A stretch of DNA of 64,000 nucleotides from Candidatus Liptonbacteria bacterium (GCA_023244895.1 JAHFLL010000001.1:404741-468740); one strand, 5' to 3'; shown: positions 4,116-42,118, counted from the first letter of the stretch. A program made the numbers and translations. The notes: generated by a model not told the origin, from the sequence alone.

Positions 4116-4375
4116 TGGGAACTATTATAACCTAATACCCGCCAAACCCAACCCGGCTGCCCGCCACCCTCCCAGCCCTTGATTTTTTGACCGGGATATG
4201 CTAGGATGTAGAAGTAAATAAGAGATGCCCTAAGGGGCGTTTTTTGTTTGTAAAATAAGGGTTTAAAGCCGTTTCTGATACCCAACACGGGTTTCTACGG
4301 TTCAGGCCTAAAAGTCTTCGTAAAAGCAAATTTGGGGCCATAGCAAGGCCTTAAATAGCGGAAAACAAGCATAAA

Positions 4376-4828
4376 ATGTCTAAAAACGCGGCGTTGGGAG
4401 CGATACTCGTTTTGAGCATCTTTTACCCCACCCAAGGAGAGGTAATCCACGCGGATTTCGAACTGGATATACCTACCCATACTCAGACCACTGTCTCAAC
4501 CACCCTGGCTTCCGTACCGACGATTAAAGCTGTCTCGGCTAGAACCAGGACGGTTAAAGTCACCGCCTACACCAGCAGCCCGGAAGAAACGGATGATACT
4601 CCATTCATAACCGCTTCCGGTAAAACCGTGCGGGATGGCATAGTCGCCAGCAACTTTCTCCCCCTGGGAACCAGGGTCAAAATTCCTACCCTATTCGGCG
4701 ACAAAATCTTTGTGGTAGAAGACCGCATGCACCCCAGGATGAAAAACGTGGTGGATATTTGGATGGAAAAGAAAGAAGATGCCCTCAAATTCGGATTCAA
4801 AAATGCCGAGATAGCAATCTTGGACTAG
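4376..4828 (+). CDS. 3D-domain (MltA-like double-psi beta-barrel) protein with signal peptide
   Basis: 150 aa with an N-terminal hydrophobic leader and the C-terminal 3D-domain pattern (VAYTSS, TASG, VASN, LPLGT, DRM). Confidence 0.6.
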   Translation: MSKNAALGAILVLSIFYPTQGEVIHADFELDIPTHTQTTVSTTLASVPTIKAVSARTRTVKVTAYTSSPEETDDTPFITASGKTVRDGIVASNFLPLGTRVKIPTLFGDKIFVVEDRMHPRMKNVVDIWMEKKEDALKFGFKNAEIAILD

Positions 4829-4876
4829 AAAATAGAATTTAGTAGTTAGAAGTTAGTAGATAATGCGCGCAATAAC

Positions 4877-4906
4877 CAAAACCCCCGGAACTCCGGGGGT
4901 TTTGGT
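4877..4906. terminator. Bidirectional intrinsic terminator hairpin
   Basis: AAAACCCCCGGAACTCCGGGGGTTTTGG: a perfect GC stem flanked by A-runs and T-runs. Confidence 0.55.
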
Positions 4907-4984
4907 TGTCGGGCTGGTTGCCTGTAAATTATTTATACACGAAAGCCGGTTCCGATGCCCGTCTGGGACTTACTCGAAACCGGC

Positions 4985-5206
4985 TCACTCTCGCGAGGCC
5001 TTGTCGGTCTCGGCTGCTTGGTCCGCTTGGACTTGCTCTGCAATCTGTCTGTCCAGCCGGCGCTTACTTCGGGCATACTTTATGGCCCAGGGAGAGAGAA
5101 TCGCCCCAGCCACGAGAAATCCGACCCCGTAGATAAAGCACCTAGACCAGCTTACGGTCTCTTTCTCCAACCCCTTGATCGTGTCCGCGATCGTCTTTGC
5201 GGTCAT
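4985..5206 (-). CDS. Small single-TM membrane protein
   Basis: 73 aa with a strong SD (AGGAGGTG) 4 nt upstream of the ATG, one TM helix, a charged C-terminus, and its own hairpin terminator downstream. It sits in a GC-richer patch. Confidence 0.45.
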   Translation of the reverse strand: MTAKTIADTIKGLEKETVSWSRCFIYGVGFLVAGAILSPWAIKYARSKRRLDRQIAEQVQADQAAETDKASRE

Positions 5207-5254
5207 GGACCACCTCCTAGCTCCCTTATACTCCTATTTTATAACCTATTCAAA

Positions 5255-5893
5255 TTAGAAATCCTGCCCGTCCCCCTCTTTCATGGGACGAAAATCTATG
5301 CCCTCCGAAACCAAAAAAGTTTCTGGCACCAGATGCGCGGCTCCAAACTGCTTTACCCCACCATCGTGCACTGGAAAAGCGAACTTGGGCCTCACCTCTA
5401 AAGCATACTTCATCGCCTCGGATATCTTCATCCAAGGTCCGGCCACCGGCAAGGCCAATATTTCCGGCCTGGTTTTGGGAATATAAAAAGCGTCTCCGGG
5501 ATAGAACAATCTTCCGCCGAAGAAAAAGCCCGTATTCTGAACTTGACCAAAGTTTTGATATATCTCCGCGTGCTTATTACCCATTGCTTCCAGTTTTAAA
5601 CCCGAGACGTCTCCGGTCACGCCATCCTCCATCAATTCAAAGGATATTCCCTCTTTGGTCAAAATAACTCCTACCCCGGAATTAGTTATAACTCTTACGC
5701 CCGGGTTTTCTTTGAGCAGGATTCTTAATGAGTCCATGTGCAAGTGATCGGCATGCTCGTGCGTAATCACTATCGCATTCAGATTCCGCGCCTCAACTTG
5801 AGACAAGGAATAGCTACCGGGATCGGTCAATATTCGTACTCCGCTTTCTTCAATCAGTAACGCGCAATGTCCGTATTTAGTTACTTTCATCAA
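5255..5893 (-). CDS. MBL-fold metal-dependent hydrolase
   Basis: 212 aa with HEHADH and the other beta-lactamase-fold metal ligands. Confidence 0.7.
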   Translation of the reverse strand: MMKVTKYGHCALLIEESGVRILTDPGSYSLSQVEARNLNAIVITHEHADHLHMDSLRILLKENPGVRVITNSGVGVILTKEGISFELMEDGVTGDVSGLKLEAMGNKHAEIYQNFGQVQNTGFFFGGRLFYPGDAFYIPKTRPEILALPVAGPWMKISEAMKYALEVRPKFAFPVHDGGVKQFGAAHLVPETFLVSEGIDFRPMKEGDGQDF

Positions 5894-31425: not shown

Positions 31426-31575
31426 GATGAGAGAGTGGGAGTTGAGAGAATGAGAGCTGGGGGGTGGGAGTTTTGGGGGGCGGGGTGGGGGTGGGGGTGG
31501 GAGGGAGAAAACGGGTTGGAAAACGCGAGGGGGTTATTTTTGAGATGGGATAAGGGTTGGTGGGGTCAGATATTT
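31426..31575 (+). repeat. G-rich, C-poor tract (GGGGGTGGG repeats), G-quadruplex-capable
   Basis: GGGGGGTGGGAGTTTTGGGGGGCGGGGTGGGGGTGGGGGTGGGAGGGAG and nearby sequence. On the minus strand, transcribed from the upstream operon, this reads as C-rich/G-poor, which is rut-site-like. Confidence 0.5.
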
Positions 31576-31648
31576 ATGAACCAGGTTTTCGGAATGCTTG
31601 TAGGCCTCTTCGTTAATAAGGCTACTTCTCGATAAAAAGAAGTTATGA

Positions 31649-32404
31649 CTACCCAGTGGTCTTTTTGAGTTCTGGAACAGTCTCTTCGAGCAACGCCTTG
31701 ATTTGATCTGAGTCAAGTGAGGACAATGCGGAATATCCACCCCTGAGATTAAGCCTGCGCATTATCAGACGTACTTTTGCCTCCTTGCTATTCGAAAATA
31801 ATGTTGGATTTCCCACTACAAATTCAAGCACGGCGAATCGTATGGTCTCATTTCTTCCTTGGGCACCAGGCAATAGATGCGTGGTGTAGTCCAACATGGA
31901 AAATACCTCTCGGGTAAGGACGTAGGGATCTTTTGCGTCCTTCGTCTTCGTGAGAGAAACAACCCACCAGAGCCTTGCGATGTCGTTGTTCATCAACGAT
32001 GCGGGACTCATCGGATCGACAAACCAATGATCGAGAATATATTTACCTCGCTTACTTTCCTTCTGGGCGGATACATCCGTCCTCTTTTTCATATAGTCGA
32101 AAAAGTCCACGTGGGTAAGGTATGTCCAAAAGCGCTCATCCGATGCGTCTTCGGGGCTCAGCGCGCTGTACGCTTCGAAAAGTCGTATCGCGGCCTCCGC
32201 AGAATCCCTACTGCCCCCGCCCGGCGGGTTGGGAAATAATATTTTGGACATGGGAACCTTCAGAGACGACTGCACCGTATCGATATCTTCGACGGAGAAA
32301 CTTTCTCCTAAATATTTTTTTACGCCTTTCCCTGTACGCAAATCATCCTTCATTCTAACGAGGGCTGCGGTCGTAAATATCGGTCTGGTGTTTTTTTCTG
32401 GCAT
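31649..32404 (-). CDS. Hypothetical protein, 4th gene of GHKL-ATPase operon
   Basis: 251 aa. Its start lies 1 nt after the upstream stop. No recognisable family (motifs RFWTYLTHV and ILDHWF). Confidence 0.6.
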   Translation of the reverse strand: MPEKNTRPIFTTAALVRMKDDLRTGKGVKKYLGESFSVEDIDTVQSSLKVPMSKILFPNPPGGGSRDSAEAAIRLFEAYSALSPEDASDERFWTYLTHVDFFDYMKKRTDVSAQKESKRGKYILDHWFVDPMSPASLMNNDIARLWWVVSLTKTKDAKDPYVLTREVFSMLDYTTHLLPGAQGRNETIRFAVLEFVVGNPTLFSNSKEAKVRLIMRRLNLRGGYSALSSLDSDQIKALLEETVPELKKTTG

Positions 32405-32405
32405 A

Positions 32406-33257
32406 TCAGGAGAATGTTATTTTATCGACGATATTGTTGAGATCGTTCAGCGAATTGGTGAGGGGGTAGTCGAATATCGCTTGCACCAGCTCGGGGATAT
32501 TTTCCACCGAGACGCCTATGCGGCGCATTCGATCCTCTTTCATCAGGTCGGTCAGTTTCTTGTGCCACTTCCTGTGGTTGTGCGTGGCACTCCTATCTTC
32601 CGACAAAAACTCGCTCATCACCCAAAGCATAGCCGGATATACGTACAGCGATATGAATACTCGTTTCAAATCTTCGCTCTTTTTAATCTTCTTCATATTT
32701 TCGTAATCCTCTTCGGGTAACTTTATGAGGATAGGGTCCGACCCCAATTCGTACTTAACATCTTTCCCTGCATGCTTGTAGAACATGAAAAATGCGCCTT
32801 CCGATCCCGGCGTCTCCCAATCTTTGGTGACCTCGAAAGAATCGCTGCCGCTGTATCCGAGTATTTCACCCTTATGAACCGTGAAAGTTTGCCCATCGAA
32901 GAAATCTGTGGTGTAGGCATTTTTGTATCGCGGTATATCCTGTTTTGCGATAATCAAACACGTCGCCACAACCGTATCTCTGAGATATTTCGAATCTATC
33001 CTTATTTGCCCCGAACCGTCTCCAGGAAGCTCGAAGCCCATTCGATACATCGTCGAGGAACAGGATACGTCGACAAAGAAAACCGCCTTGCCGTCAGTTA
33101 TTAATTTCTCCATAGCTTCGTTATGGAGGACCTGAGAAACGGTCAAGATCGTCTCTTTGGCGATAACGAGTCCAATATGGGTCTCGAACCTACCGACGAT
33201 TTCGCCTCCGTCCTTGCGTAGTATTGGATGCGGCAACGATACAATGTCGAGTTTCAT
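32406..33257 (-). CDS. Hypothetical protein, 3rd gene of operon (possible PD-(D/E)xK-like motif GD...IDSK)
   Basis: 283 aa. ATGA overlap with the GHKL gene. The weak PD-x9-DxK pattern is speculative. Confidence 0.6.
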   Translation of the reverse strand: MKLDIVSLPHPILRKDGGEIVGRFETHIGLVIAKETILTVSQVLHNEAMEKLITDGKAVFFVDVSCSSTMYRMGFELPGDGSGQIRIDSKYLRDTVVATCLIIAKQDIPRYKNAYTTDFFDGQTFTVHKGEILGYSGSDSFEVTKDWETPGSEGAFFMFYKHAGKDVKYELGSDPILIKLPEEDYENMKKIKKSEDLKRVFISLYVYPAMLWVMSEFLSEDRSATHNHRKWHKKLTDLMKEDRMRRIGVSVENIPELVQAIFDYPLTNSLNDLNNIVDKITFS

Positions 33258-35155
33258 CGAGATTTTTTGATTAGTTCAAAAGCGTTGAGCTTCAGGGAAT
33301 ATTTTCCGGATTCCGAAAATTTTACCTTCAGTCTCCTTGCGCCCATTTTATTCAAAACAAGATCACGTATCTCGTTTGCATTGAAGCTGGGCTGATTTTT
33401 AACCGTCTTATCCGCTATGATCGTTTGCAAAACTAACCTCTCGGAAGAATCGTCGCCACCCGCAACTATTTGAACGATGTCTATTTTCTTTCCTGGCTCT
33501 CCCTTGATCTGAATCTGATGAGTCGGATTACTTTCGGAGTCGGAACCCGCAAATGAAAGGAATGCGATACCCGCTAGCGGTCGCGCGTCGTTATTCTTTG
33601 TTTTCGATTTTTTCTTTCCCTTGTTTCTCTTGTCGGCAACTGGAATATATACATCCCCACCTTCCTTCTCGGCGCGTTCTTTGATGCTCAGGATCTTCTT
33701 TTTTACTTTCAGATCCAAATTCCGCATTTCCTCGACGGTCACCTCGTCGCCGTATTCTTTTTGGGTGTATTCTTTTTCTCCGCCCTGCGCTCCAGAACCT
33801 TCGTCGGTATCCATTGCAATAAAATCCTCCAACCCCTCGATAGAAAGATATCGTTCTTCCCGAGAGGTGCTCAGTTTTTGCAACTCCCTTTTGATAAAAT
33901 TCTCCATTTCCAGATACGCCAACTTGGCCTTTTCGCGATTCTCTTGCGTTTTGGCGTTCTCCCATTTCCATTCGTTGTGTTCCTGGTTCTCCATCTCCCT
34001 GAGGAGCGCATTACCATTTTCGTTGTCGCAAATAAAAACCGCGGCATACCGATTCATCGAATTCTTCTTGATGCAGTCCACGACCATGCCGGGTTTCCGG
34101 ATCAAAGCCACCCGGTTGGGATACCCGTCAGCCAGTAAAAGATGCAAGCGAACCTTGCCGAGGTGATCCAATTCGTCCTCTATCGGAGCATCCTTACGAT
34201 AGGCGTAGTAGAGAGGTAGCGGGTTCGGCACATCCGTGTTGCCCCACTCGAAAGGAGCTTTGCTGAAATATTTATGGAGGAGGTGTTCGACGGTATTTTG
34301 ATTGATGGTTTCGTTTTCCTGCACCTTAACGGTAAGCTTGCCCGTAATGATGGGCAGCCAGAAATAGCGGAGGATCGATTGAACCAATTCTGAGGCCCAA
34401 TCGTCCTCACCGATGAAATCGGGGATTAAAAAGTCCGTGCCAGGTCTTATTCGCTTAAACACGCTCGGAAAAAGCTTGGTGAAATTAGTTGGGATGAGAT
34501 CGCGGTCGTGAATCGGCTTTTGATCACCCACGCCGTAGGTACCGTTATTTTGTTTTCGCTTCCCGTCTTCTTCGAACGTGGTAACGATGGTTTTCCCAGC
34601 GAAGGTATAAGAGTTGGCCTCGTCGATACTGGAAATGAAAAGGGAAAGAAAGCCGGACGAGACATAGTAAGCGCCTTTTCCCAGACCGAACGATCCACCG
34701 CTCCCAGACTGTTTATTGCTGAAACCGACGGATTCCGCAAACCGGAACCAGTTCTCTTTTGTCATGCCGACAGTATTGAAATCACTGATCCTGAGAACTT
34801 TGACCGTGGTATTTTTCGAGATTTTACTCGCTCCTTTCTCGAATTCGACTGCCGTATCAATCGCTCCTTTCTCCCTCAAATAAACGGCGCACGCCGAAAG
34901 TATCTTCGCGAGCCGCTCGGCTCCAGGCACGCTTTTGGCGGGCATCGTAACAACGCTGAATTCAGCTTCAACGGGCTTCCCTGAACTCGAATCGTGCGCG
35001 TCCATTATATTTTGGAGGGCCTCTCGGGCGATATAGTAGGAAGGATTACCGCGAAATTCAACCGTGGGCCCAGCATTCGGGCCATCGGCCATACCCCCCC
35101 CGAGATCCCCGAAAATCCATTCAGGCTTATTTGAATCTGTTGAAGTCTTGGGCAT
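33254..35155 (-). CDS. GHKL-superfamily ATPase (Hsp90/MORC/MutL-like Bergerat fold), 2nd gene of operon
   Basis: 633 aa with N-box EALQNIMDA, G1 box DFNTVGMTKE (Hsp90-like DxGxGMTK) and G2 GSGGSFGLGKG. It also has a Lys-rich low-complexity linker and a ~100-aa C-terminal domain. Confidence 0.7.
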   Translation of the reverse strand: MPKTSTDSNKPEWIFGDLGGGMADGPNAGPTVEFRGNPSYYIAREALQNIMDAHDSSSGKPVEAEFSVVTMPAKSVPGAERLAKILSACAVYLREKGAIDTAVEFEKGASKISKNTTVKVLRISDFNTVGMTKENWFRFAESVGFSNKQSGSGGSFGLGKGAYYVSSGFLSLFISSIDEANSYTFAGKTIVTTFEEDGKRKQNNGTYGVGDQKPIHDRDLIPTNFTKLFPSVFKRIRPGTDFLIPDFIGEDDWASELVQSILRYFWLPIITGKLTVKVQENETINQNTVEHLLHKYFSKAPFEWGNTDVPNPLPLYYAYRKDAPIEDELDHLGKVRLHLLLADGYPNRVALIRKPGMVVDCIKKNSMNRYAAVFICDNENGNALLREMENQEHNEWKWENAKTQENREKAKLAYLEMENFIKRELQKLSTSREERYLSIEGLEDFIAMDTDEGSGAQGGEKEYTQKEYGDEVTVEEMRNLDLKVKKKILSIKERAEKEGGDVYIPVADKRNKGKKKSKTKNNDARPLAGIAFLSFAGSDSESNPTHQIQIKGEPGKKIDIVQIVAGGDDSSERLVLQTIIADKTVKNQPSFNANEIRDLVLNKMGARRLKVKFSESGKYSLKLNAFELIKKSR

Positions 35156-35157
35156 TT

Positions 35158-35388
35158 TTATAGTTCAAACTCCTTCTCTTGTTTTTCTTCACCCCGAAAA
35201 CGAGCTTCCGCCTTCGCAAGCGCGTCTTTCATCGCCCCGAAAATCTTCCTTAATTGGTCTGGGGTGTAGTCGTAAAGCCCACGATTATGGAGATTGGAAA
35301 CGATCCGGATATCGTCGAGGACTTTCCTGACCCTTTTCTCCGCCAGCCGCTTGAACCGTTCCGCCTTTTGTTCGTTATTTTTTGACAT
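35158..35388 (-). CDS. Small helical basic protein, 1st gene of operon (possible DNA-binding/regulator)
   Basis: 76 aa. Its stop lies 2 nt before the GHKL ATG. A TTGACA-17-TATACT promoter sits upstream. Confidence 0.45.
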   Translation of the reverse strand: MSKNNEQKAERFKRLAEKRVRKVLDDIRIVSNLHNRGLYDYTPDQLRKIFGAMKDALAKAEARFRGEEKQEKEFEL

Positions 35389-35412
35389 AGTATTTTAGGA
35401 AGTATTTCCTGA

Positions 35413-35441
35413 AGTATATTCTATAGTATTTTCTATGTCAA
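35413..35441 (-). promoter_or_regulatory. Sigma70-like promoter for the 4-gene operon (TTGACA-17-TATACT on minus strand)
   Basis: Read directly from the sequence. It lies just downstream of a small GC hairpin that terminates vsr. Confidence 0.4.
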
Positions 35442-35446
35442 GTCTC

Positions 35447-35869
35447 TTATCTTCGGGCCTCTTCGGGGCCTAAACACCTCTTCATTTTGGTCTCTACGCG
35501 ATCCGGATGCTTCTTTATGACCGATCCCCAGAATCGGAGCACCTTATAACCGCGTTTGCGTAGTTCCCTGATCTGACGGCTGTCCCTTTTTATATTCGCA
35601 GCAATTTTTGATTTCCAAAAATCGGGAATTCGTGCGCCCCATTTTTTAAGCCCTCTTCCATGCCAAAAATCGCCATCCGCGAAGATGGCGATTTTATTTT
35701 TCACAAAGACAATGTCGGGTTTTCCCGGGAGACTGGCTACGTTTTTTCTGTAGCGTTCAATTTTCCAAAAAGGCCTGACTATTCTGCCCAATAGTTTTTC
35801 GATGTCGGTATTTTTTGTACCGACTTTCTTCATCAATACGCTACGCGCTTCTTTGGTTAATTTATCCAT
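35447..35869 (-). CDS. vsr: Very-short-patch-repair endonuclease
   Basis: Motif FADGDFWHGR (compare the FVDGCFWHGH Vsr signature) with conserved Asp/His. The start is probably internal MDKLT. Confidence 0.75.
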   Translation of the reverse strand: MDKLTKEARSVLMKKVGTKNTDIEKLLGRIVRPFWKIERYRKNVASLPGKPDIVFVKNKIAIFADGDFWHGRGLKKWGARIPDFWKSKIAANIKRDSRQIRELRKRGYKVLRFWGSVIKKHPDRVETKMKRCLGPEEARR

Positions 35870-36389
35870 GCTCCTCGACGCGTGGATAAATAATGCGTGC
35901 CTCTGCGACAAGAGCTTTAGTAACTGTTATATTCCATCCCCGCATAGTCTTGTGCCACTTCTTCAGTCTGAAAAATTGTTCCCATGTGATCTCTAAAATT
36001 TTCTTTGGCTGCAGATTCTGATCTATTAAAACAATAACGACGTACTCGAATTTCTTTTCCGAGGGATGCTCGATTTCGGGATCACCGAGTCCGTAAAAAA
36101 CACTCGTCAAACTGTTCGGCTCGGTAATTGTCTTTATGCTGTACCTGTCTCCCTTCCGACTCAATGCATCAACATTCTGGGTTCCTTCCGGAGCTGCTTG
36201 GAGCTTAGGCAACCCGGGAATTTTGTTATATGTTTCGATGGCCAAAAACTCGCCACGTTCCCCGGTGATGTTCTTGGTCCGTATTAACCCTCGCTTTTTC
36301 AAAAGAGTAATCGCAAACGCGTAGACGCTCCACACGACGTCATCACTGGCAGCCTCTATCTTCTCAAATATCTCAAATTCCTTTCCCAT
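35862..36389 (-). CDS. Hypothetical protein between dcm and vsr (R-M associated)
   Basis: 175 aa, translationally coupled to its neighbours. No recognised family. Confidence 0.45.
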   Translation of the reverse strand: MGKEFEIFEKIEAASDDVVWSVYAFAITLLKKRGLIRTKNITGERGEFLAIETYNKIPGLPKLQAAPEGTQNVDALSRKGDRYSIKTITEPNSLTSVFYGLGDPEIEHPSEKKFEYVVIVLIDQNLQPKKILEITWEQFFRLKKWHKTMRGWNITVTKALVAEARIIYPRVEEHG

Positions 36390-36397
36390 GAGTAAAT

Positions 36398-37384
36398 CTA
36401 CAGAAATTTTATTATTTCACGGCCAATTTCCCGTATCACGTTTATCGCCACGCTATTTCCGAGCTGCTTGAGCATCTGCGTATGTGTAACCGTTGTTGGA
36501 AAATCGAAATCCGCCGGAAATCCCATCATCGTTTTCATCTCACCCACAGTCAAGACATGTTTTTCCCCTCCAACAATATATGTATCCCAACTCCTCTTGT
36601 CCACAAACCATTCTCCGTTTCTTTTTTTGTATACTGGCGACCCGCGCCCACCAACTCGAATGGTTCTCCCTATCTTGTTCGGCCATTTCTTATCTTTAAA
36701 GAATTTACATAAAGTCGTGCCTCCTGGACTAGTTGGCTTTGGGAATTTAAATTCCTTGGCGCCAGGCGCTCCTTTTTTAAAGGCCACTAAATAAAATCTG
36801 GGTCGAGCGGTCGGCAGACCGAAATCGCTGGCATTCAGAAAGTTCCAGGAATCGTCTCGCTCCTCGTTTACGTAATATCCAGCCCTGTCCAGTTTTTCCA
36901 AGATAATTTGGAACGTATGCTTATTGTCGTGATTAACAATGTTCCTCACGTTCTCCAGAAAAATAACCTTCGGCTGCTTGGCCAAAATTATTCTCTCTAT
37001 GTCACCGAATAGGGTGCCTCTGTCATCATCAAATCCCCGTTTTTGTCCGATACGACTGAACGGTTGGCATGGGAAACCAGCACACAATACATCGAATTTT
37101 GGTATAACCCTTTTTATATTTTTATCCCAAATTGTTTTTGATTGCCCAGTATCAGTAAGGGTTATGTCCTTTATGCTTTTCCAAAAATAGGGTTCGCGCT
37201 TCTTGCTTTTAAACAATTCGGGGTTGGTCTTACGAAAATTATGCTCGTATGTCTTCCGTGCATTCTCGTCGAATTCATTTACGAACACGCATTCACCGCC
37301 GAGCTCCTGTAGCGCGAGATGGAATCCACCGATTCCAGCGAAAAGGTCAATAAATGTAAACTTTGGCCTCCTTTTCTTTTTCAT
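36398..37384 (-). CDS. dcm: DNA (cytosine-5)-methyltransferase
   Basis: Motif I FIDLFAGIGG, motif IV GFPCQPFS, ENV, and the C-terminal target-recognition and motif IX/X pattern. Confidence 0.85.
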   Translation of the reverse strand: MKKKRRPKFTFIDLFAGIGGFHLALQELGGECVFVNEFDENARKTYEHNFRKTNPELFKSKKREPYFWKSIKDITLTDTGQSKTIWDKNIKRVIPKFDVLCAGFPCQPFSRIGQKRGFDDDRGTLFGDIERIILAKQPKVIFLENVRNIVNHDNKHTFQIILEKLDRAGYYVNEERDDSWNFLNASDFGLPTARPRFYLVAFKKGAPGAKEFKFPKPTSPGGTTLCKFFKDKKWPNKIGRTIRVGGRGSPVYKKRNGEWFVDKRSWDTYIVGGEKHVLTVGEMKTMMGFPADFDFPTTVTHTQMLKQLGNSVAINVIREIGREIIKFL

Positions 37385-37464: not shown

Positions 37465-38475
37465 TTATCTTGCTTTATGGGATAGCTCAAATAACTTGTC
37501 CTTTATGCTTTCAAACTGGGCTCTAGTAATTGGATATGGTGTACCCCCGCCATGATTGAAAGAGTTTGAAAATGGCTCGCTGAATTCTCCCTGTTTCCCA
37601 AATTTCAGCTCAATATCCTTCTTGGACTTTTTCTTTATCTCAAAATCAACAAAGTGAGGCCAGTGCCGGTTATTTATTTCCAGGGTCCTTCTCTGATCTT
37701 CAAAAAATGTCCCCCTGTGGTTGTCGAGCGCCATATAATACGGTTCGACAATACTGCAAATGTAGTATCTGTAAATAGTTATCTCCGTCTTAGGGTTTTT
37801 GGGCATAGCCATACTATTCCCGGCCTTACCGAATATAAAAAGTATCTTGTCGCCTTTCTGCATATCCAGAATATGCGGCAATGCTTTTGCATGCTGTCGG
37901 AATGCCCAGAACGGCTTAGAGGGCTTACTCTTGAGCATCCTATCAAAGTTCTTCACCGCAGGGCCATTGGCTCCTCCTTTTAAGAATACGACCCAATATT
38001 GACTCTTGCTTGAAAGATTCTTGCTCTCGGCCTGATAAATTAGAGACTCCCGCGAGAGCCGAGAAATATTTTCCGCGACCCAATCGGCAAAATCATCATG
38101 GTCAATGGCTACAACGTCTATCCCCTCATATGTCTTTAAATCAGTCTCCCCAAGGACAACAACAAAACCATCTTTTTCTTTTATATATCTTTTCTGATTG
38201 TCTTTCTTAAAATCGGTTAAATGCCATTTGACCTCTACCGGTATGCCGTTCTGCCGTTTTTTAAAAAAGATCTCCAGGTCGGCTCGATAACGAGCTTCTG
38301 TCTTGGACCCTTCGGGTACAATAAGATTTATCTGATCTTTTTGGAGTCTTTCCGGAAGCAATTTTCTCCTCTGGCCAGAATCACCAAAATAATATCTTTC
38401 GAAAAGATAACGGTGGATCAGCTTTTCGTTAAAGGCATTTCGGTTGATCTTTTTGAAGATATCCAGTCCGCTCAT
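37465..38475 (-). CDS. Putative type II restriction endonuclease (N-terminal PD-(D/E)xK: RADLEIF...PVEVKW)
   Basis: 336 aa, located immediately upstream of dcm on the same strand. It has a D-x12-EVK motif. This is an inference. Confidence 0.5.
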   Translation of the reverse strand: MSGLDIFKKINRNAFNEKLIHRYLFERYYFGDSGQRRKLLPERLQKDQINLIVPEGSKTEARYRADLEIFFKKRQNGIPVEVKWHLTDFKKDNQKRYIKEKDGFVVVLGETDLKTYEGIDVVAIDHDDFADWVAENISRLSRESLIYQAESKNLSSKSQYWVVFLKGGANGPAVKNFDRMLKSKPSKPFWAFRQHAKALPHILDMQKGDKILFIFGKAGNSMAMPKNPKTEITIYRYYICSIVEPYYMALDNHRGTFFEDQRRTLEINNRHWPHFVDFEIKKKSKKDIELKFGKQGEFSEPFSNSFNHGGGTPYPITRAQFESIKDKLFELSHKAR

Positions 38476-38726: not shown

Positions 38727-39614
38727 TTACGCCGCTTCGCTCCGGCGGTAGAGCTCGAAGAACCTGAGGAAGATCTTGGCGACACGCCGGCGGACCGGCG
38801 GGCTCTTCAAGACCCTCACGACCTCCTCGTGATTGGTCGCGTTTGTGCCATCCTTCTTGGTTGTATTGGACACGATGGAAACGGCGAGCGTGCGCAGACC
38901 GCGATTGGTCGCGACGATCACTTCGGGCGCGGTAGACATGCCCATCGCGTCCCCGCCCAGAATCCGAATCGCACGGACCTCCGCGGGGGTCTCGTAGGTC
39001 CGTCCGGTCTGGACGAAGAGCACGCCCCTGTGGACACGCCGAGACTCTCGCACGATTGCGGCCGCGCGGTGGAACATACTGCGCAGCTTCAGGTCGTACG
39101 TGCCGACCTTGGGGTACATGGGCTGGAAGTACCAGTTGCTCCCAAAGTCCAAATGCGGTCCGAGAAGCGGGTTGGGCATCGCGAGAGCGATGTGGTCCGT
39201 GACCACCATCAGATCTCCGACCTTGTAGGACATGTTCGCCGCGCCGACTGCGTTGGTCGACATGTAGATCTGGACACCGAGCTCCGCCATCACCTGGACG
39301 GCGAGGGTAACCCACCACATCGCCCGCGGGTCGGGAGCGGCGTTGTAGTAGTGCTCCCGGCCGGACAAGGCGAAAACGGGCACGCCAGCGATGGTCCCGT
39401 AGATCAGCTCGCCCTTGTGCCCCGGAGCGCTCACGCCCGGGAAACCGGGAATCAGCCGATACGGGATCACAACCTCCTTCACCATCTGCTCGGCGAGGTC
39501 GTCCATCCCCGAGCCTAGCGTGAGCGAAATCTTGGGCATGGGGCCATTCACCCTGCTCCGGATGTAGGCTGCCGCCGCCCGAACCTTGGCCACGTAGACT
39601 TTCGGCGAGATCAT
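38727..39614 (-). CDS. Purine nucleoside phosphorylase (PunA/MTAP family), GC-rich foreign cassette
   Basis: 295 aa with GSGMDDLAE, SGREHYY and MGMSTAPEVIVA...NHEEV. A strong SD (GGGAGG) lies upstream. The gene is markedly GC-richer than the genome. Confidence 0.8.
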   Translation of the reverse strand: MISPKVYVAKVRAAAAYIRSRVNGPMPKISLTLGSGMDDLAEQMVKEVVIPYRLIPGFPGVSAPGHKGELIYGTIAGVPVFALSGREHYYNAAPDPRAMWWVTLAVQVMAELGVQIYMSTNAVGAANMSYKVGDLMVVTDHIALAMPNPLLGPHLDFGSNWYFQPMYPKVGTYDLKLRSMFHRAAAIVRESRRVHRGVLFVQTGRTYETPAEVRAIRILGGDAMGMSTAPEVIVATNRGLRTLAVSIVSNTTKKDGTNATNHEEVVRVLKSPPVRRRVAKIFLRFFELYRRSEAA

Positions 39615-39837
39615 CTCTCAGTCCCTCCCTGTTATGCCTCACGGAATAATATCAAAACCGTTTCGGATAGCTCCTCGCGGCTCATCACATCATTATGCAG
39701 TCAGGTATAAAAATCAATGTAGTAAGCGAAAGTAGAGGCTAGTAGCTAGAAGGTAGTAGGTAGCGAGCAAAATGAACCTAAACGGGAAAACACTGCTCAT
39801 CTCTCACTAACCCTATCTCCCCCAACTCACACCCCCG

Positions 39838-40021
39838 TGGTGGGTACTATACTACGGTATAGCGGAGGATAGTAGGTAGAATATATAAGGTAGAAGTTGG
39901 AAGATGGGAAGTGGTAGGTAAAAAGCGAGGGGTAGAAGTTAGAAGATAGAAGTTGGAAGGTAGAAAGTAGAATGCGGAGTATATAAGAAAGAACCAGCCC
40001 CGGACGCGCGTCGCGCCGGGG
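39838..40021. repeat. Composite repeat copy 2: 23-bp palindromic motif + C-depleted purine tract + 48-bp terminator module
   Basis: GGTACTATACTACGGTATAGCGG, then about 100 nt with almost no C (GGTAGAAGTTAGAAGATAGAAG...), then the terminator module for the lipoprotein gene. Confidence 0.55.
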
Positions 40022-40041
40022 CGGTCAATCTCATCATCCTA

Positions 40042-40746
40042 CTAGTCATAGAAGCGCGTCACCGGGGAGTAGTGCTCCCGGATGAAGGCGTTGAAGCAGG
40101 GACCTTCCTTCTGGCCACAGGCAAGCCAGCCTCTATACATAGTGGCACCGACCGGGTCCAGGTTGCGGCCCGCCCTCACTAGAGCAGAGACGGTATAGCG
40201 GCAGGTCCTGTCCCATGCGGTGACCTCGGAGGCGATCAGCGCCTCCTTACCGTCCACGTTGTCACAGCCACTCGCAAGATGCTCCAGCTCGTGGAGAAGA
40301 CCGATCACGATCGAGACTTCGAAGGTCTGCGGCGTGACCTTTCCGCTTCGATAGAACTGTAGCTGGGCCGGTACGAAGATCCGGAGCACGGGATTGCCAC
40401 CCCGAGCATCGCAACCGGCCAAGACGTCTCTGGAGCGGTTATTGAAGGACGTGCTGGCCTCGATGGCGAACACCTTGCCGTAGCGCTCAGCGCTCCGCCT
40501 GGAGAGCTCCAGATAACGGTTGTTGATGTCCGAAACCGAATACCTGGCCCGGAGCACCTCCTCCATCACGGTCCGGTTGAAGTGGGAGTCCCAGAACGCG
40601 TGGAGCTCCTCGTCCGAGAACTTGCGCTCCACCCTCTCCGCCACGGTGGGGGTGGGTTCATTCTTCTTGTCTATGGGGCAACCAAGAACCAGAAGAATGG
40701 TCGTCAGAAACAGGATGCGCGCCGTTCTTCCGCGTCGCATGGACAC
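40042..40746 (-). CDS. Lipoprotein with HExxH zinc-metallopeptidase motif, GC-rich cassette
   Basis: Signal peptide with lipobox LVLGC, HELEH motif, and an SD (AGGGGAGG) before a GTG/ATG start. Confidence 0.55.
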   Translation of the reverse strand: MSMRRGRTARILFLTTILLVLGCPIDKKNEPTPTVAERVERKFSDEELHAFWDSHFNRTVMEEVLRARYSVSDINNRYLELSRRSAERYGKVFAIEASTSFNNRSRDVLAGCDARGGNPVLRIFVPAQLQFYRSGKVTPQTFEVSIVIGLLHELEHLASGCDNVDGKEALIASEVTAWDRTCRYTVSALVRAGRNLDPVGATMYRGWLACGQKEGPCFNAFIREHYSPVTRFYD

Positions 40747-40895
40747 AGGTTGCCTCCCCTATTGTTTTGCCGTCATTGCGGCGATGGTAAACGAACCGAC
40801 CATATAATACAATTTTTCATGTAAAACACAAGATAACCCTCTTTCATTAATTATCTAGCCCCTCACGTCCCCAGCTTGACTAGGACATAGCACCA

Positions 40896-41064
40896 GGTAA
40901 CAAGTAGTGGCTAGTAATTAGTATTGAATAACGGTGAGTTAGAAGACGGTGGTTGGTAGTTAGAACGTGGAAAGTGGAACGTAGAACTACTGCCACTACT
41001 ACAATCATAATTCCGCTTACTCATCCATCAACCCCCACAGTGGGCACTATACTACGGTATAGTT
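40896..41064. repeat. Third copy of purine-rich tract + 23-bp palindromic motif (GTGGGCACTATACTACGGTATAG)
   Basis: Same orientation as the copy at 39842, and upstream of the plus-strand gene 41153. Confidence 0.45.
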
Positions 41065-41152
41065 ATCCACAGATAGGCATTGACGCACAGACTGGACGGC
41101 TATAGTTTTAAATCAGCCCCCGAAACGTTAACCTCTTTCAAGGAGCAGTGTC

Positions 41153-41392
41153 ATGGGTAGCAACAACACGCCACGGTACGAGGAAGACACTCGGCAGGTC
41201 TCCTCGGCCACCAGTGCGGCGGGCATGGCAGCGGCAGTCATGATTGCCGGGCCGTTCGCAGCGCTGTTCGTCGATCCGAACGACAAGTGGGAGCACACCA
41301 TCACCGATACCCAGACTGGTAACCAGGTTGTGGGTACCGGGAGCACCCCGCAAGAAGCTCGCGACGAAGCCCTGGGCAACATGCGTCGCTAA
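41153..41392 (+). CDS. Small hypothetical protein (79 aa), GC-rich
   Basis: AAGGAG sits 7 nt upstream of the ATG. No recognised family. Confidence 0.45.
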   Translation: MGSNNTPRYEEDTRQVSSATSAAGMAAAVMIAGPFAALFVDPNDKWEHTITDTQTGNQVVGTGSTPQEARDEALGNMRR

Positions 41393-41564
41393 TCGTTTAG
41401 CGAACATCCAGCCCGGATATAAAAAGAGGTACAGACACAAAAGTAAGGCAAGAAAGGGGCAAAATAGCCCGCCGCAATTAGCGGAAAATCCACAAGGCGC
41501 ATATTACGCGCGAGCCCCGGCTATTGCTAACGCACCCGGGGTTTTTGAATATTAAAATCAACAC

Positions 41565-41612
41565 AAAAAGCGAGACCCCGGACGCAGCACGATGCTGGCC
41601 GGGGCCCGAACT
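41565..41612 (-). terminator. GC hairpin terminator related to the CCCCGG..CCGGGG module
   Basis: Minus-strand GGGCCCCGGCCAGCA..TGCTGCGTCCGGGG followed by a T-rich run, located after the zinc-ribbon gene. Confidence 0.35.
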
Positions 41613-41631
41613 CTTCTCCACGCACAGAACG

Positions 41632-41895
41632 CTATTGCGGAGGCCAGATGGACTCGTCCTCGCAGACGGGACACTCGTAGCGATCTCCTCGCCTGGCCGA
41701 CTCTGGCAACTGCTTGTCGCAATTGGGGCAGACCGGTACCAAAACAGTGTCCTCGTTGGCGGGCAGTCGGCAACATTGCGGGCAGTAGCCCGCAACCTTG
41801 CCGTTTCGATCTTCTACCCTCTCCAGCAACCCTCCGCACGCCTTGTGCGCGGACCACCACTCTGTCGGCTTCAAGGCGATCGCCAGAACGCTCAT
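41632..41895 (-). CDS. Zinc-ribbon mini-protein (CPQCC...CPNC...CPVC)
   Basis: 87 aa with a strong SD (GGGAGGAG) and three CxxC pairs. Confidence 0.5.
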   Translation of the reverse strand: MSVLAIALKPTEWWSAHKACGGLLERVEDRNGKVAGYCPQCCRLPANEDTVLVPVCPNCDKQLPESARRGDRYECPVCEDESIWPPQ

Positions 41896-41908
41896 CCGAT
41901 TCTCCTCC

Positions 41909-42118
41909 CTAGCACCTGGTGCAGGATGTCACGGTGCAGTAGGTCTTGGATTCCGGTCCGCCGCTTCTGCGAGCGCTGTCGTTGCAGCCCTCGCAGACCA
42001 GGGCGTTTCCACCCCGGACCAGACCCGCGCCATTGCAGTGCGAGCACTTCTCGCCCTTCTTCCCGCCGCTCCCTCGGCAGAAGGAGCAATTCATGACCGG
42101 GACGTCTCCGAGCGCCAT
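41909..42118 (-). CDS. DnaJ-type zinc-finger mini-protein (CxxCxGxG repeats)
   Basis: Start taken at MALGDV with the SD GGGGGA. Motifs CSFCRGSGG, CSHCNGAG and CEGCN. Confidence 0.45.
   Translation of the reverse strand: MALGDVPVMNCSFCRGSGGKKGEKCSHCNGAGLVRGGNALVCEGCNDSARRSGGPESKTYCTVTSCTRC

Follow-up and report, generated by a model that had tools for sequence, protein, structure and literature searches.

Layout and family of the S-A-B-C cassette

A 64,000-nucleotide (nt) stretch of DNA from a Candidatus Liptonbacteria bacterium (GCA_023244895.1, JAHFLL010000001.1:404741-468740), hereafter called the window, carries a compact operon of four minus-strand genes at 31649..35441. An earlier note, made from the sequence alone, had described this operon as a candidate defence system built around a GHKL ATPase. 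The genes were named S, A, B and C, in the order S-A-B-C. S (35158..35388) is the first cassette gene and encodes a small basic protein of 76 amino acids (aa). A (33254..35155) encodes a 633-aa GHKL ATPase with an Hsp90-like N-domain, B (32406..33257) an adaptor-like protein of 283 aa, and C (31649..32404) a DUF6339 protein of 251 aa. The junctions were read from the sequence: S and A are separated by a 2-nt gap (TAA-aa-ATG), A and B share a 4-nt ATGA overlap (cgATGAaa), and B and C are separated by a 1-nt gap (TGA-t-ATG). The four open reading frames (ORFs) and all three junctions are exactly as the earlier note had stated. In a public gene call, A begins 21 codons further downstream and has 612 aa. 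This shorter form lacks W13 and F15, which are conserved in the family, and the 633-aa start is favoured for this reason.

The cassette promoter and leader are located at 35382..35441 on the minus strand. The promoter TTGACA-17-TATACT (35441..35413) matches the consensus at 11 of 12 positions and is the top promoter-like site within 31-39 kb; the total number of such sites in this region is not above the shuffled expectation. The near-consensus promoter that had been proposed for the operon is thus present. The leader contains AGTAT-type direct repeats in three overlapping 22-nt copies at 12-nt spacing. A perfect 9-nt inverted repeat (TTGACATAG / CTATGTCAA) pairs the -35 hexamer with the start codon of S. 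The repeats and the inverted repeat form a putative operator and may have a regulatory role. Among the related loci described below, L020 and L038 have a terminator-like hairpin ahead of S, and TGTAAAT/ATTTACA palindromes occur before S in several Paceibacteria loci; such palindromes are seen in L020, L024 and L032.

PADLOC-DB v2.0.0 was used for defence models, and the matches of S, A, B and C were listed to E ≤ 0.1. A matched PDC-M33A (E = 1e-90), B matched PDC-M33B (E = 1e-44) and C matched PDC-M33C (E = 8e-36), all near full length. The three matches fall in consecutive genes and in the same order as the models. Judged by these matches, the window operon is a member of the PADLOC phage-defence candidate PDC-M33. 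No PADLOC match beyond the PDC-M33 models was found for the four proteins at this threshold. C also matched the Pfam family DUF6339 (PF19866) with E = 3e-45 and 154.6 bits, against a gathering cutoff of 23.2, and this family is carried by 47 of 47 C homologues. A, B and S showed no Pfam, NCBIfam or PHROGs family match. The gene combination, which had been taken as unrecognised, was therefore already catalogued, and the two proteins said to have no recognisable family correspond to PDC-M33B (the 283-aa protein) and to DUF6339 and PDC-M33C (the 251-aa protein). A full-text search of the searchable library for "PDC-M33" and "DUF6339" found no paper. PDC-M33 is a catalogued computational candidate, uncharacterised as far as the searchable literature shows.

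Homologues of A formed 84 clusters in a collection of 5.8 billion proteins, and relatives were present in 274 of 185,579 species-representative genomes (0.15%). B gave 2022 representative clusters (E ≤ 1e-3) in a library of 1.84 billion proteins, nearly all of them standalone proteins of about 280 aa. For comparison, 80 related genome loci were collected and their ORFs were scanned with iterated profiles. The loci came from at least eight phyla: Patescibacteria, Bacteroidota, Proteobacteria (Gamma- and Alphaproteobacteria), Bacillota, Planctomycetota, Elusimicrobiota, Chloroflexota and Deinococcota; many of them are in Patescibacteria. Beyond the 80 genome loci, 11 viral loci and plasmid copies were inspected. 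Copies of the cassette were found on plasmids of Deinococcus, Priestia, Ligilactobacillus and Lactococcus and on proviral contigs.

A is followed by B in 78 of the 80 loci, and B by C in 75; where this order breaks, the cause is the end of a contig or a frameshift. The start of B overlaps the end of A in most loci. S is located directly upstream of A in 58 of the 80 genome loci, in 7 of the 11 viral loci and on 2 plasmids, and it is absent mainly from a Bacteroidales-rich subset. The four-gene order was found again in dozens of unrelated genomes. Pairwise similarities of A and B are closely correlated (rho 0.87), and those of A and C less so (rho 0.68). The A-B-C order is colinear wherever the contig allows, which confirms that the operon is conserved as a unit. 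The earlier note had said that its defence proposal would fail if the partner proteins were housekeeping families, or if the gene set was not conserved as a unit and not enriched near defence genes. The partners did not turn out to be housekeeping proteins, and the set is both conserved and close to defence genes.

Linkage to Dcm-type methylases and Vsr

A Vsr-family endonuclease and a Dcm-type C5 cytosine DNA methyltransferase are encoded upstream of the cassette in the window. The Vsr gene (35447..35911, minus strand) is an ORF of 154 aa that matched Pfam Vsr (3e-21) and TIGR00632 (101.7 bits against a cutoff of 97.85); the public gene call gives 140 aa at 35447..35869. The Dcm gene (36398..37384, minus strand) matched Pfam DNA_methylase (2e-73) and TIGR00675.

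All neighbouring ORFs of the 80 loci were clustered into families. Dcm was the commonest neighbour family, with 65 of the 80 loci, and Vsr came second with 46; a serine recombinase followed in 10 loci. In 61 of the 80 loci the cassette has a Dcm gene no more than three genes away. The proportion is 36 of 41 among loci with 3 kb or more of sequence on each side. Vsr lies within the same distance in 41 of the 80. The interval between Dcm and the cassette is empty or holds Vsr only in 53 loci. Within three positions of the cassette, 66 of 391 genes are Dcm genes, compared with 4 of 566 farther out in the same loci. The frequency of Dcm thus falls 24-fold past three gene positions.

The recurring gene orders are Dcm-Vsr-S-A-B-C, Dcm-S-A-B-C and Vsr-Dcm-S-A-B-C; in other loci Dcm and Vsr are divergent from S-A-B-C, or S-A-B-C is followed by Dcm/Vsr. 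On two IMG/VR contigs, L088 (6695..11921) and L098 (6658..8242), the methylase lies within the cassette in the order S-Dcm-A-B-C(-Vsr), and the end of Dcm overlaps the start of A. The Deinococcus actinosclerus plasmid (CP029775; L084) shows the order Dcm-Vsr-x-S-A-B-C. The cassette of the Priestia aryabhattai plasmid pG5MAi6_1 (NZ_CP118719) adjoins a Sau3AI-family restriction endonuclease (REase) and dcm. On the Ligilactobacillus salivarius megaplasmid (L085), HsdS-HsdM (N6-adenine) is located directly upstream of A-B-C, no HsdR is annotated within the stretch inspected, and the position of S is taken by a non-homologous small gene. In L059 and L076 the cassette lies beside type I or type IIG genes. 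The presence of S is associated with Dcm adjacency (Fisher p = 0.02).

The immediate linkage of Dcm and Vsr across the loci indicates that these neighbours are part of the unit rather than a coincidence. Since Dcm is a regular partner in about three quarters of the loci, the functional unit exceeds 31649..35441. The earlier note had reported a Dcm/REase/Vsr cluster beside the operon, and this cluster is present; its view of the cluster as a separate system that merely co-localises does not agree with a Dcm gene within three positions in 61 of 80 loci. Where the upstream methylase or Vsr is on the same strand, it is separated from S by 59-496 nt in every case (median 90), without any overlap. 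These gaps, together with the promoter found there in the window, point to a separately regulated two-unit layout, which is usual for restriction-modification (R-M) systems.

Two side observations concern these genes. The cysteines that form the zinc site of E. coli Vsr were seen by eye to be absent from the window Vsr (FADGDFWHGRGL) and from the Vsr of some other loci, and to be kept elsewhere, for example in L067 (FVDGCFWHGCVYC). In L084, the gene between Vsr and S (4151..5296) carries a NOV_C domain (E = 1e-9), a domain that is elsewhere fused to GHKL ATPases.

The cassette proteins and the surrounding island

The translation of A contains REALQNIMDA, SDFNTVGMTKE and GSGGSFGLGKG. Residue conservation was examined in alignments of 30 to 84 homologues. 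Invariant or nearly invariant residues are E45, N49 and D52 in motif I, D125 and G130 in motif II, G154, G157, G159 and K160 in the lid of motif III, and G239-T240 in motif IV. Motif II reads D-[FY]-N-T-x-G and is one residue longer than in Hsp90. Beyond the ATP-binding motifs, R353 is invariant or nearly so, and E389-x-x-x-H393 is invariant (ENQEH in the window, consensus MENxxHxEW). The layout of A, as read from its sequence, comprises the N-domain, a middle region with R353 and E389xxxH393, a charged linker and a C-terminal domain.

The relationship of A to other GHKL proteins was assessed with hhalign, using an N-domain profile of 152 sequences and 300 unrelated proteins from the same loci as controls. 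The empirical controls were used because a plain hmmsearch of the N-domain against all locus ORFs ranked a spurious radical-SAM protein first and HtpG second (E = 2). With E. coli HtpG, the profile gave a 95-column alignment spanning the N-box and the G2 box (score 36.4, P = 2e-4). The controls reached a maximum of 25.1 (mean 15.0, standard deviation 3.0). This score is far above the controls and supports the assignment of A as a GHKL ATPase of Hsp90-like sequence type, in agreement with the earlier note. The alignment with HtpG ends after the G2 box, leaving the middle and C-terminal domains unaligned, and A has no Pfam HSP90 match. With E. coli MutL, only the N-box aligned and the score was at control level. 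A profile of MORC-like HATPase_c_3 proteins from the same loci and five such proteins also scored at control level. Against Pfam HATPase_c_3, 1 of 30 members matched, with E = 0.16 only. No MORC S5 signature (GhXhhpXXRhl) could be made out by eye near the conserved RKPGM segment. The label "MORC-like" that had been given to A was thus not upheld. Single-sequence and profile searches of A against PDB sequences gave nothing significant.

The AlphaFold2 model of B (predicted local distance difference test, pLDDT, 92.7; alignment of 147 sequences) is predicted to contain two Ig/FN3-like beta-sandwiches followed by a helical bundle at residues 182-283. The N-terminal segment of B is conserved (PHPxL; consensus S.PHPVLG) and has neither helix nor strand in the model. 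The model of C is all-alpha (pLDDT 87, predicted template modelling score 0.85), and its fold had no PDB match. A PD-(D/E)xK site in C (D172...E208xK210), seen in the alignment, was rejected because the model is all-helical. Searches of B, C and S against PDB sequences, as single proteins and as profiles, gave no significant match. No modified-base reader fold (SRA, EVE, PUA, DUF262, McrB-N) was found in B or C. In locus L008 (2855..4396), the DUF6339 protein has 514 aa and is extended by two topoisomerase-I-type C4 zinc ribbons, a fusion which hints that C works on DNA. Other lengthened C proteins, in L080 (349 aa) and L092 (355 aa), have no recognisable added domain.

S belongs to a family of basic proteins of about 71-77 aa. 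The isoelectric point of the window copy is 9.7, which bears out its description as basic, and the family median is 9.8. Two motifs are conserved, RF..A..R...LGNC.NR..Y.Y...F and, at the C-terminus, FK(F/L); in the window copy VSNLHNR replaces LGNC.NR. The alignment suggests that S consists of two helices. S was rejected as a classical helix-turn-helix (HTH) controller, since it has no HTH family match and only two helices were suggested.

Two further genes of the window lie next to Dcm. The first encodes a 175-aa protein between Dcm and Vsr (35862..36389, minus strand) that matched PADLOC mREase_II, a type II methyl-directed restriction enzyme, with E = 1e-60; its PDB sequence match is weak (Eco15I, E = 0.38). 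This gene occupies the same place in the close relative L001 and is absent from most loci, and it is not a conserved part of the unit. A gene for a methyl-directed enzyme adjoining Dcm is an odd pairing. The second encodes a 336-aa protein upstream of Dcm (37465..38475, minus strand) with a weak C-terminal match to EVE (PUA-like, a reader of modified bases; E = 0.03). This protein, a possible type IV restriction enzyme, has no match among PDB sequences.

Across the loci, the flanks of the cassette contain genes for type II REases, pAgo, SIR2, AriA, GajA, reverse transcriptase, MADS, SoFic, Schlafen/AlbA_2 and recombinases. These flanking genes place the cassette in defence islands, as had been proposed. 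A recognisable conventional REase stands beside the methylase in only a minority of the loci (for example HpaII, EcoRII-C, HNH or Bse634I). Among 74 flanking proteins surveyed in 46 loci, each REase model matched 5 at most. In five loci (L010, L030, L053, L066, L049), a second, MORC-like GHKL gene (HATPase_c_3) lies on the far side of Dcm, so that two different GHKL modules flank one methylase. Some of these second genes also match Hypoth_Ymh or a second HATPase_c, and in L010 and L053 there is a 468-aa partner without a Pfam match. The second gene may be the paraMORC/two-component-like element of PMC8011034. A serine-recombinase-type gene (Resolvase/Recombinase/Zn_ribbon_recom) is found within 10 kb of Dcm and the cassette in ten loci, mostly of Patescibacteria (L048, L032, L006, L074, L054, L058, L070, L057, L022, L020). 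This suggests that the Dcm-cassette unit is carried on a small mobile island.

On the mRNA strand, a C-rich tract follows C at about 31459..31507 (minus strand; G-rich on the plus strand). Its presence after the cassette had been noticed before, and it is a candidate that could act as a Rho utilisation site or form a G-quadruplex. Its G-runs yield a spurious G/W-rich ORF on the plus strand (31435..31635). A block of GC 0.56-0.57 is present at 39-42 kb, compared with about 0.47 in the rest of the window. This block (39000..42000) sits just beyond the island and holds a 295-aa ORF (38727..39614) and other high-GC ORFs.

Possible functions of the cassette

Gene order, coupling, conservation, methylase linkage and the GHKL motifs are directly established from the loci, and the folds of B and C from models. 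Given these, we put at about even chances the reading of S-A-B-C as the restriction-like part of a system that tells self from non-self by methylation; its modification arm would be an interchangeable Dcm-type methylase or, occasionally, another methylase. We favour this reading because of the methylase linkage, the scarcity of conventional REases, the separate transcription unit and the GHKL identity of A. The defence-island neighbours, the carriage on plasmids and proviral contigs, and the occurrence in only 274 of 185,579 genomes argue in the same direction. The reading also fits two precedents, namely the 2008 prediction of MORC/paraMORC ATPases in R-M systems (PMC2292703) and AbiR (PMC13064643).

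We infer the following course of events. The methylase would mark the host DNA, and Vsr would repair the T:G mismatches that arise from deamination of 5-methylcytosine (m5C), limiting the mutational cost. The cassette would be transcribed from its own promoter apart from the methylase unit, following the R-M logic of modification before restriction. Translational coupling would give fixed ratios of S, A, B and C, which may assemble into a complex. In this complex A would be the motor, a dimerising GHKL ATPase with R353 as its transducer arginine, and would close as an ATP-driven clamp like MutL, MORC, GyrB and Hsp90. B may serve as the adaptor, with its two Ig-like domains, helical bundle and N-terminal docking peptide. 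C (DUF6339) would be the DNA-proximal subunit, and S a small basic co-factor or regulator. The complex would engage DNA without the host methyl mark, and would then block replication or recruit a nuclease, which may be Vsr, a neighbouring REase or a host enzyme. The cassette would be toxic when the methylase is absent.

Several observations weigh against a restriction-like function. First, the models of B and C show neither a nuclease nor any other effector fold. A methyltransferase is encoded with the module, as in an R-M system (Dcm in 61 of 80 loci, HsdS-HsdM in L085, and Dcm inside the cassette in L088 and L098), and an endonuclease was not identifiable in the predicted folds of B or C. 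Among the enzymes recognised, cleavage could then be supplied only by Vsr, present in about half of the loci, or by an occasional neighbouring REase. Second, some loci, the window included, already hold a REase-like gene beside Dcm. Third, about 10% of the loci have no nearby methylase, mostly in the S-less Bacteroidales clade (L077, L078, L080). Fourth, the similarity of Dcm is weakly correlated with that of A (rho 0.38 overall and 0.06-0.11 among distant pairs). The length class of Dcm also varies by locus (roughly 300-399, 400-449 and 500-549 aa), and the methylase is therefore exchanged freely. The lack of co-evolution between Dcm and the cassette disfavours a tight methylase complex of the type I/III kind, and free exchange leaves unexplained how diverse methyl marks would be read. 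Finally, the similarity of Vsr is more closely correlated with that of A (rho 0.58, and 0.46 for distant pairs) than with that of Dcm (0.35 and 0.23), and Dcm follows A less closely than Vsr does (0.31 against 0.58). The closer link of Vsr to A would be explained by a role in repair as well.

Repair or damage control is accordingly the main rival explanation, and we regard it as possible though rather unlikely. A would act as a MutL-like activator of the nicking endonuclease Vsr in very-short-patch repair or as an Hsp90-like remodeller of a DNA-stalled methylase, with B, C and S as adaptors. The module would travel with a mobile Dcm so that new hosts tolerate the methylase, and this tolerance would be most relevant to reduced genomes such as those of Patescibacteria, to which many of the loci belong. 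Stimulation of Vsr by MutL is known from E. coli (cited in PMC2292703). The closeness of Vsr in 41 of 80 loci, its correlation with A, the lack of a nuclease in B and C, and a partnership mainly with C5 methylases, which cause deamination, all agree with such a role. However, Vsr is not nearby in about a third of the Dcm-linked loci. Some cassettes have neither Dcm nor Vsr and lie in defence islands or beside type I/N6-adenine methylase genes. The sporadic spread (0.15% of species genomes), the plasmids and proviral contigs, and the listing by PADLOC as a defence-island candidate also speak against repair, and the score of A against MutL is no better than that of the best controls.

A defence or abortive infection that is independent of methylation seems unlikely. 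Here Dcm would be adjacent because islands are shared or because R-M genes serve as integration anchors. The free swapping of Dcm families relative to the cassette, the loci without Dcm, and the varied defence genes and recombinases among the neighbours would be expected. This explanation leaves open why Dcm is immediately adjacent in 53 of 80 loci, why its frequency drops 24-fold beyond three gene positions, why it occurs between S and A, and why the linkage recurs across phyla with different Dcm length classes.

We also consider, with similar reserve, a nuclease-free epigenetic reader-clamp, in which the GHKL complex topologically entraps or compacts DNA without the m5C mark and silences or blocks it. 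Such a clamp would be a prokaryotic counterpart of the eukaryotic MORC-type silencing linked to methylation. It would be built with B, whose architecture has no solved relative, C, whose all-alpha fold has none either, and S, which has no PADLOC model.

A type IV-like function, in which the cassette attacks foreign modified DNA and is kept beside a Dcm of non-overlapping specificity, is very improbable. The window gene between Dcm and Vsr resembles methyl-directed REases and the 336-aa upstream gene has a weak EVE match, so modification readers do occur in the island. B and C, in contrast, showed no modified-base reader fold, and a regular methylase partner is the mark of systems that modification protects rather than of those that depend on it. 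A housekeeping chaperone operon, with an Hsp90 paralogue and its co-chaperones, is close to refuted by distribution and context. HtpG is the closest to the A N-domain among the GHKL proteins compared, but the alignment covers the ATP-binding motifs alone and Pfam HSP90 is not matched. No more than 274 of 185,579 species genomes hold a relative, and the cassette, which plasmids and proviral contigs carry, is in every case a neighbour of R-M or defence genes.

The cassette was compared with known systems. PDC-M33 itself is a three-gene computational candidate; S is outside its PADLOC models, and the Dcm/Vsr linkage was derived here from the loci. In 2008, Iyer, Abhiman and Aravind predicted that MORC/paraMORC GHKL ATPases function in R-M operons which also encode cytosine methylases and Vsr (PMC2292703). 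The cassette resembles these operons in combining a GHKL ATPase with a cytosine methylase and Vsr and in its lateral mobility. Most of them encode a superfamily 2 helicase and a nuclease of the restriction endonuclease fold, whereas the cassette has neither and has S, B and C as partners. Unlike the MORC-like GHKL proteins, A has no HATPase_c_3 match, and its hhalign score is no better than the controls. ParaMORC2 has a conserved ExxxH late in the S5 domain and is common in Gram-positives (PMC2292703). By description only, A is similar, with its invariant E389xxxH393 and its relatives on plasmids of Lactococcus, Ligilactobacillus and Priestia.

AbiR of the Lactococcus lactis plasmid pKR223 is a three-gene module that flanks the type II R-M system LlaKR2I, needs the m5C methylase of that system and is toxic without it; its proteins are sigma-70-like, ParB-like and a Snf2 helicase-nuclease (PMC13064643). 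The proposed dependence on a methylase beside R-M genes, even with a conventional REase present (window, Priestia plasmid), is shared with the cassette. AbiR was rejected as the same system because the folds differ and the cassette proteins match the PDC-M33 models only. As the cassette is proposed to do, BREX and DISARM use a methylase to mark self and a multi-protein ATPase module to block unmodified DNA. DISARM class 2 uses a Dcm-type methylase, and the window Dcm matched DrmMII (5e-49). BREX, too, is not known to have an obvious nuclease. The cassette is far smaller than BREX and DISARM and has a GHKL motor instead of a P-loop or helicase ATPase, and the PADLOC search found no homologues of BrxC, PglZ, BrxL, DrmA, DrmB or DrmC. 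The presence of a GHKL ATPase beside Vsr and Dcm recalls MutL-Vsr repair, and the alignment of the A N-domain from the N-box to the G2 box recalls Hsp90/HtpG. Unlike MutL and Hsp90, A aligns in its ATP-binding motifs only, has no MutL or HSP90 family match and shows a mobile, sporadic distribution. VcSduA/Shedu-GHKL and other published GHKL defence proteins were rejected as relatives because their architectures are unrelated.

This is not the discovery of an unknown system, because PDC-M33 is already in PADLOC and the idea of GHKL ATPases in R-M is old. What is new here is the conserved fourth gene S, the quantified methylase/Vsr linkage that redefines the unit, and the predicted folds of B and C, in which no nuclease is recognisable. 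For annotation, PDC-M33 should be searched jointly with the small upstream gene and the Dcm/Vsr pair. We found no experimental test, for the PDC-M33 family, of the 2008 prediction of MORC/paraMORC-type ATPases in R-M. Direct testing is feasible because plasmids of the cultivable Deinococcus, Priestia, Ligilactobacillus and Lactococcus carry copies. The unit is compact (5-6 genes) and is found widely among uncultured Patescibacteria and Bacteroidota. If the methylase-gated function is true, it would add a new class of motor and two new folds to methylation-based immunity. It would also raise the question of how a cassette that swaps its methylase reads the mark, and it may be relevant to how methylation-linked MORC silencing arose.

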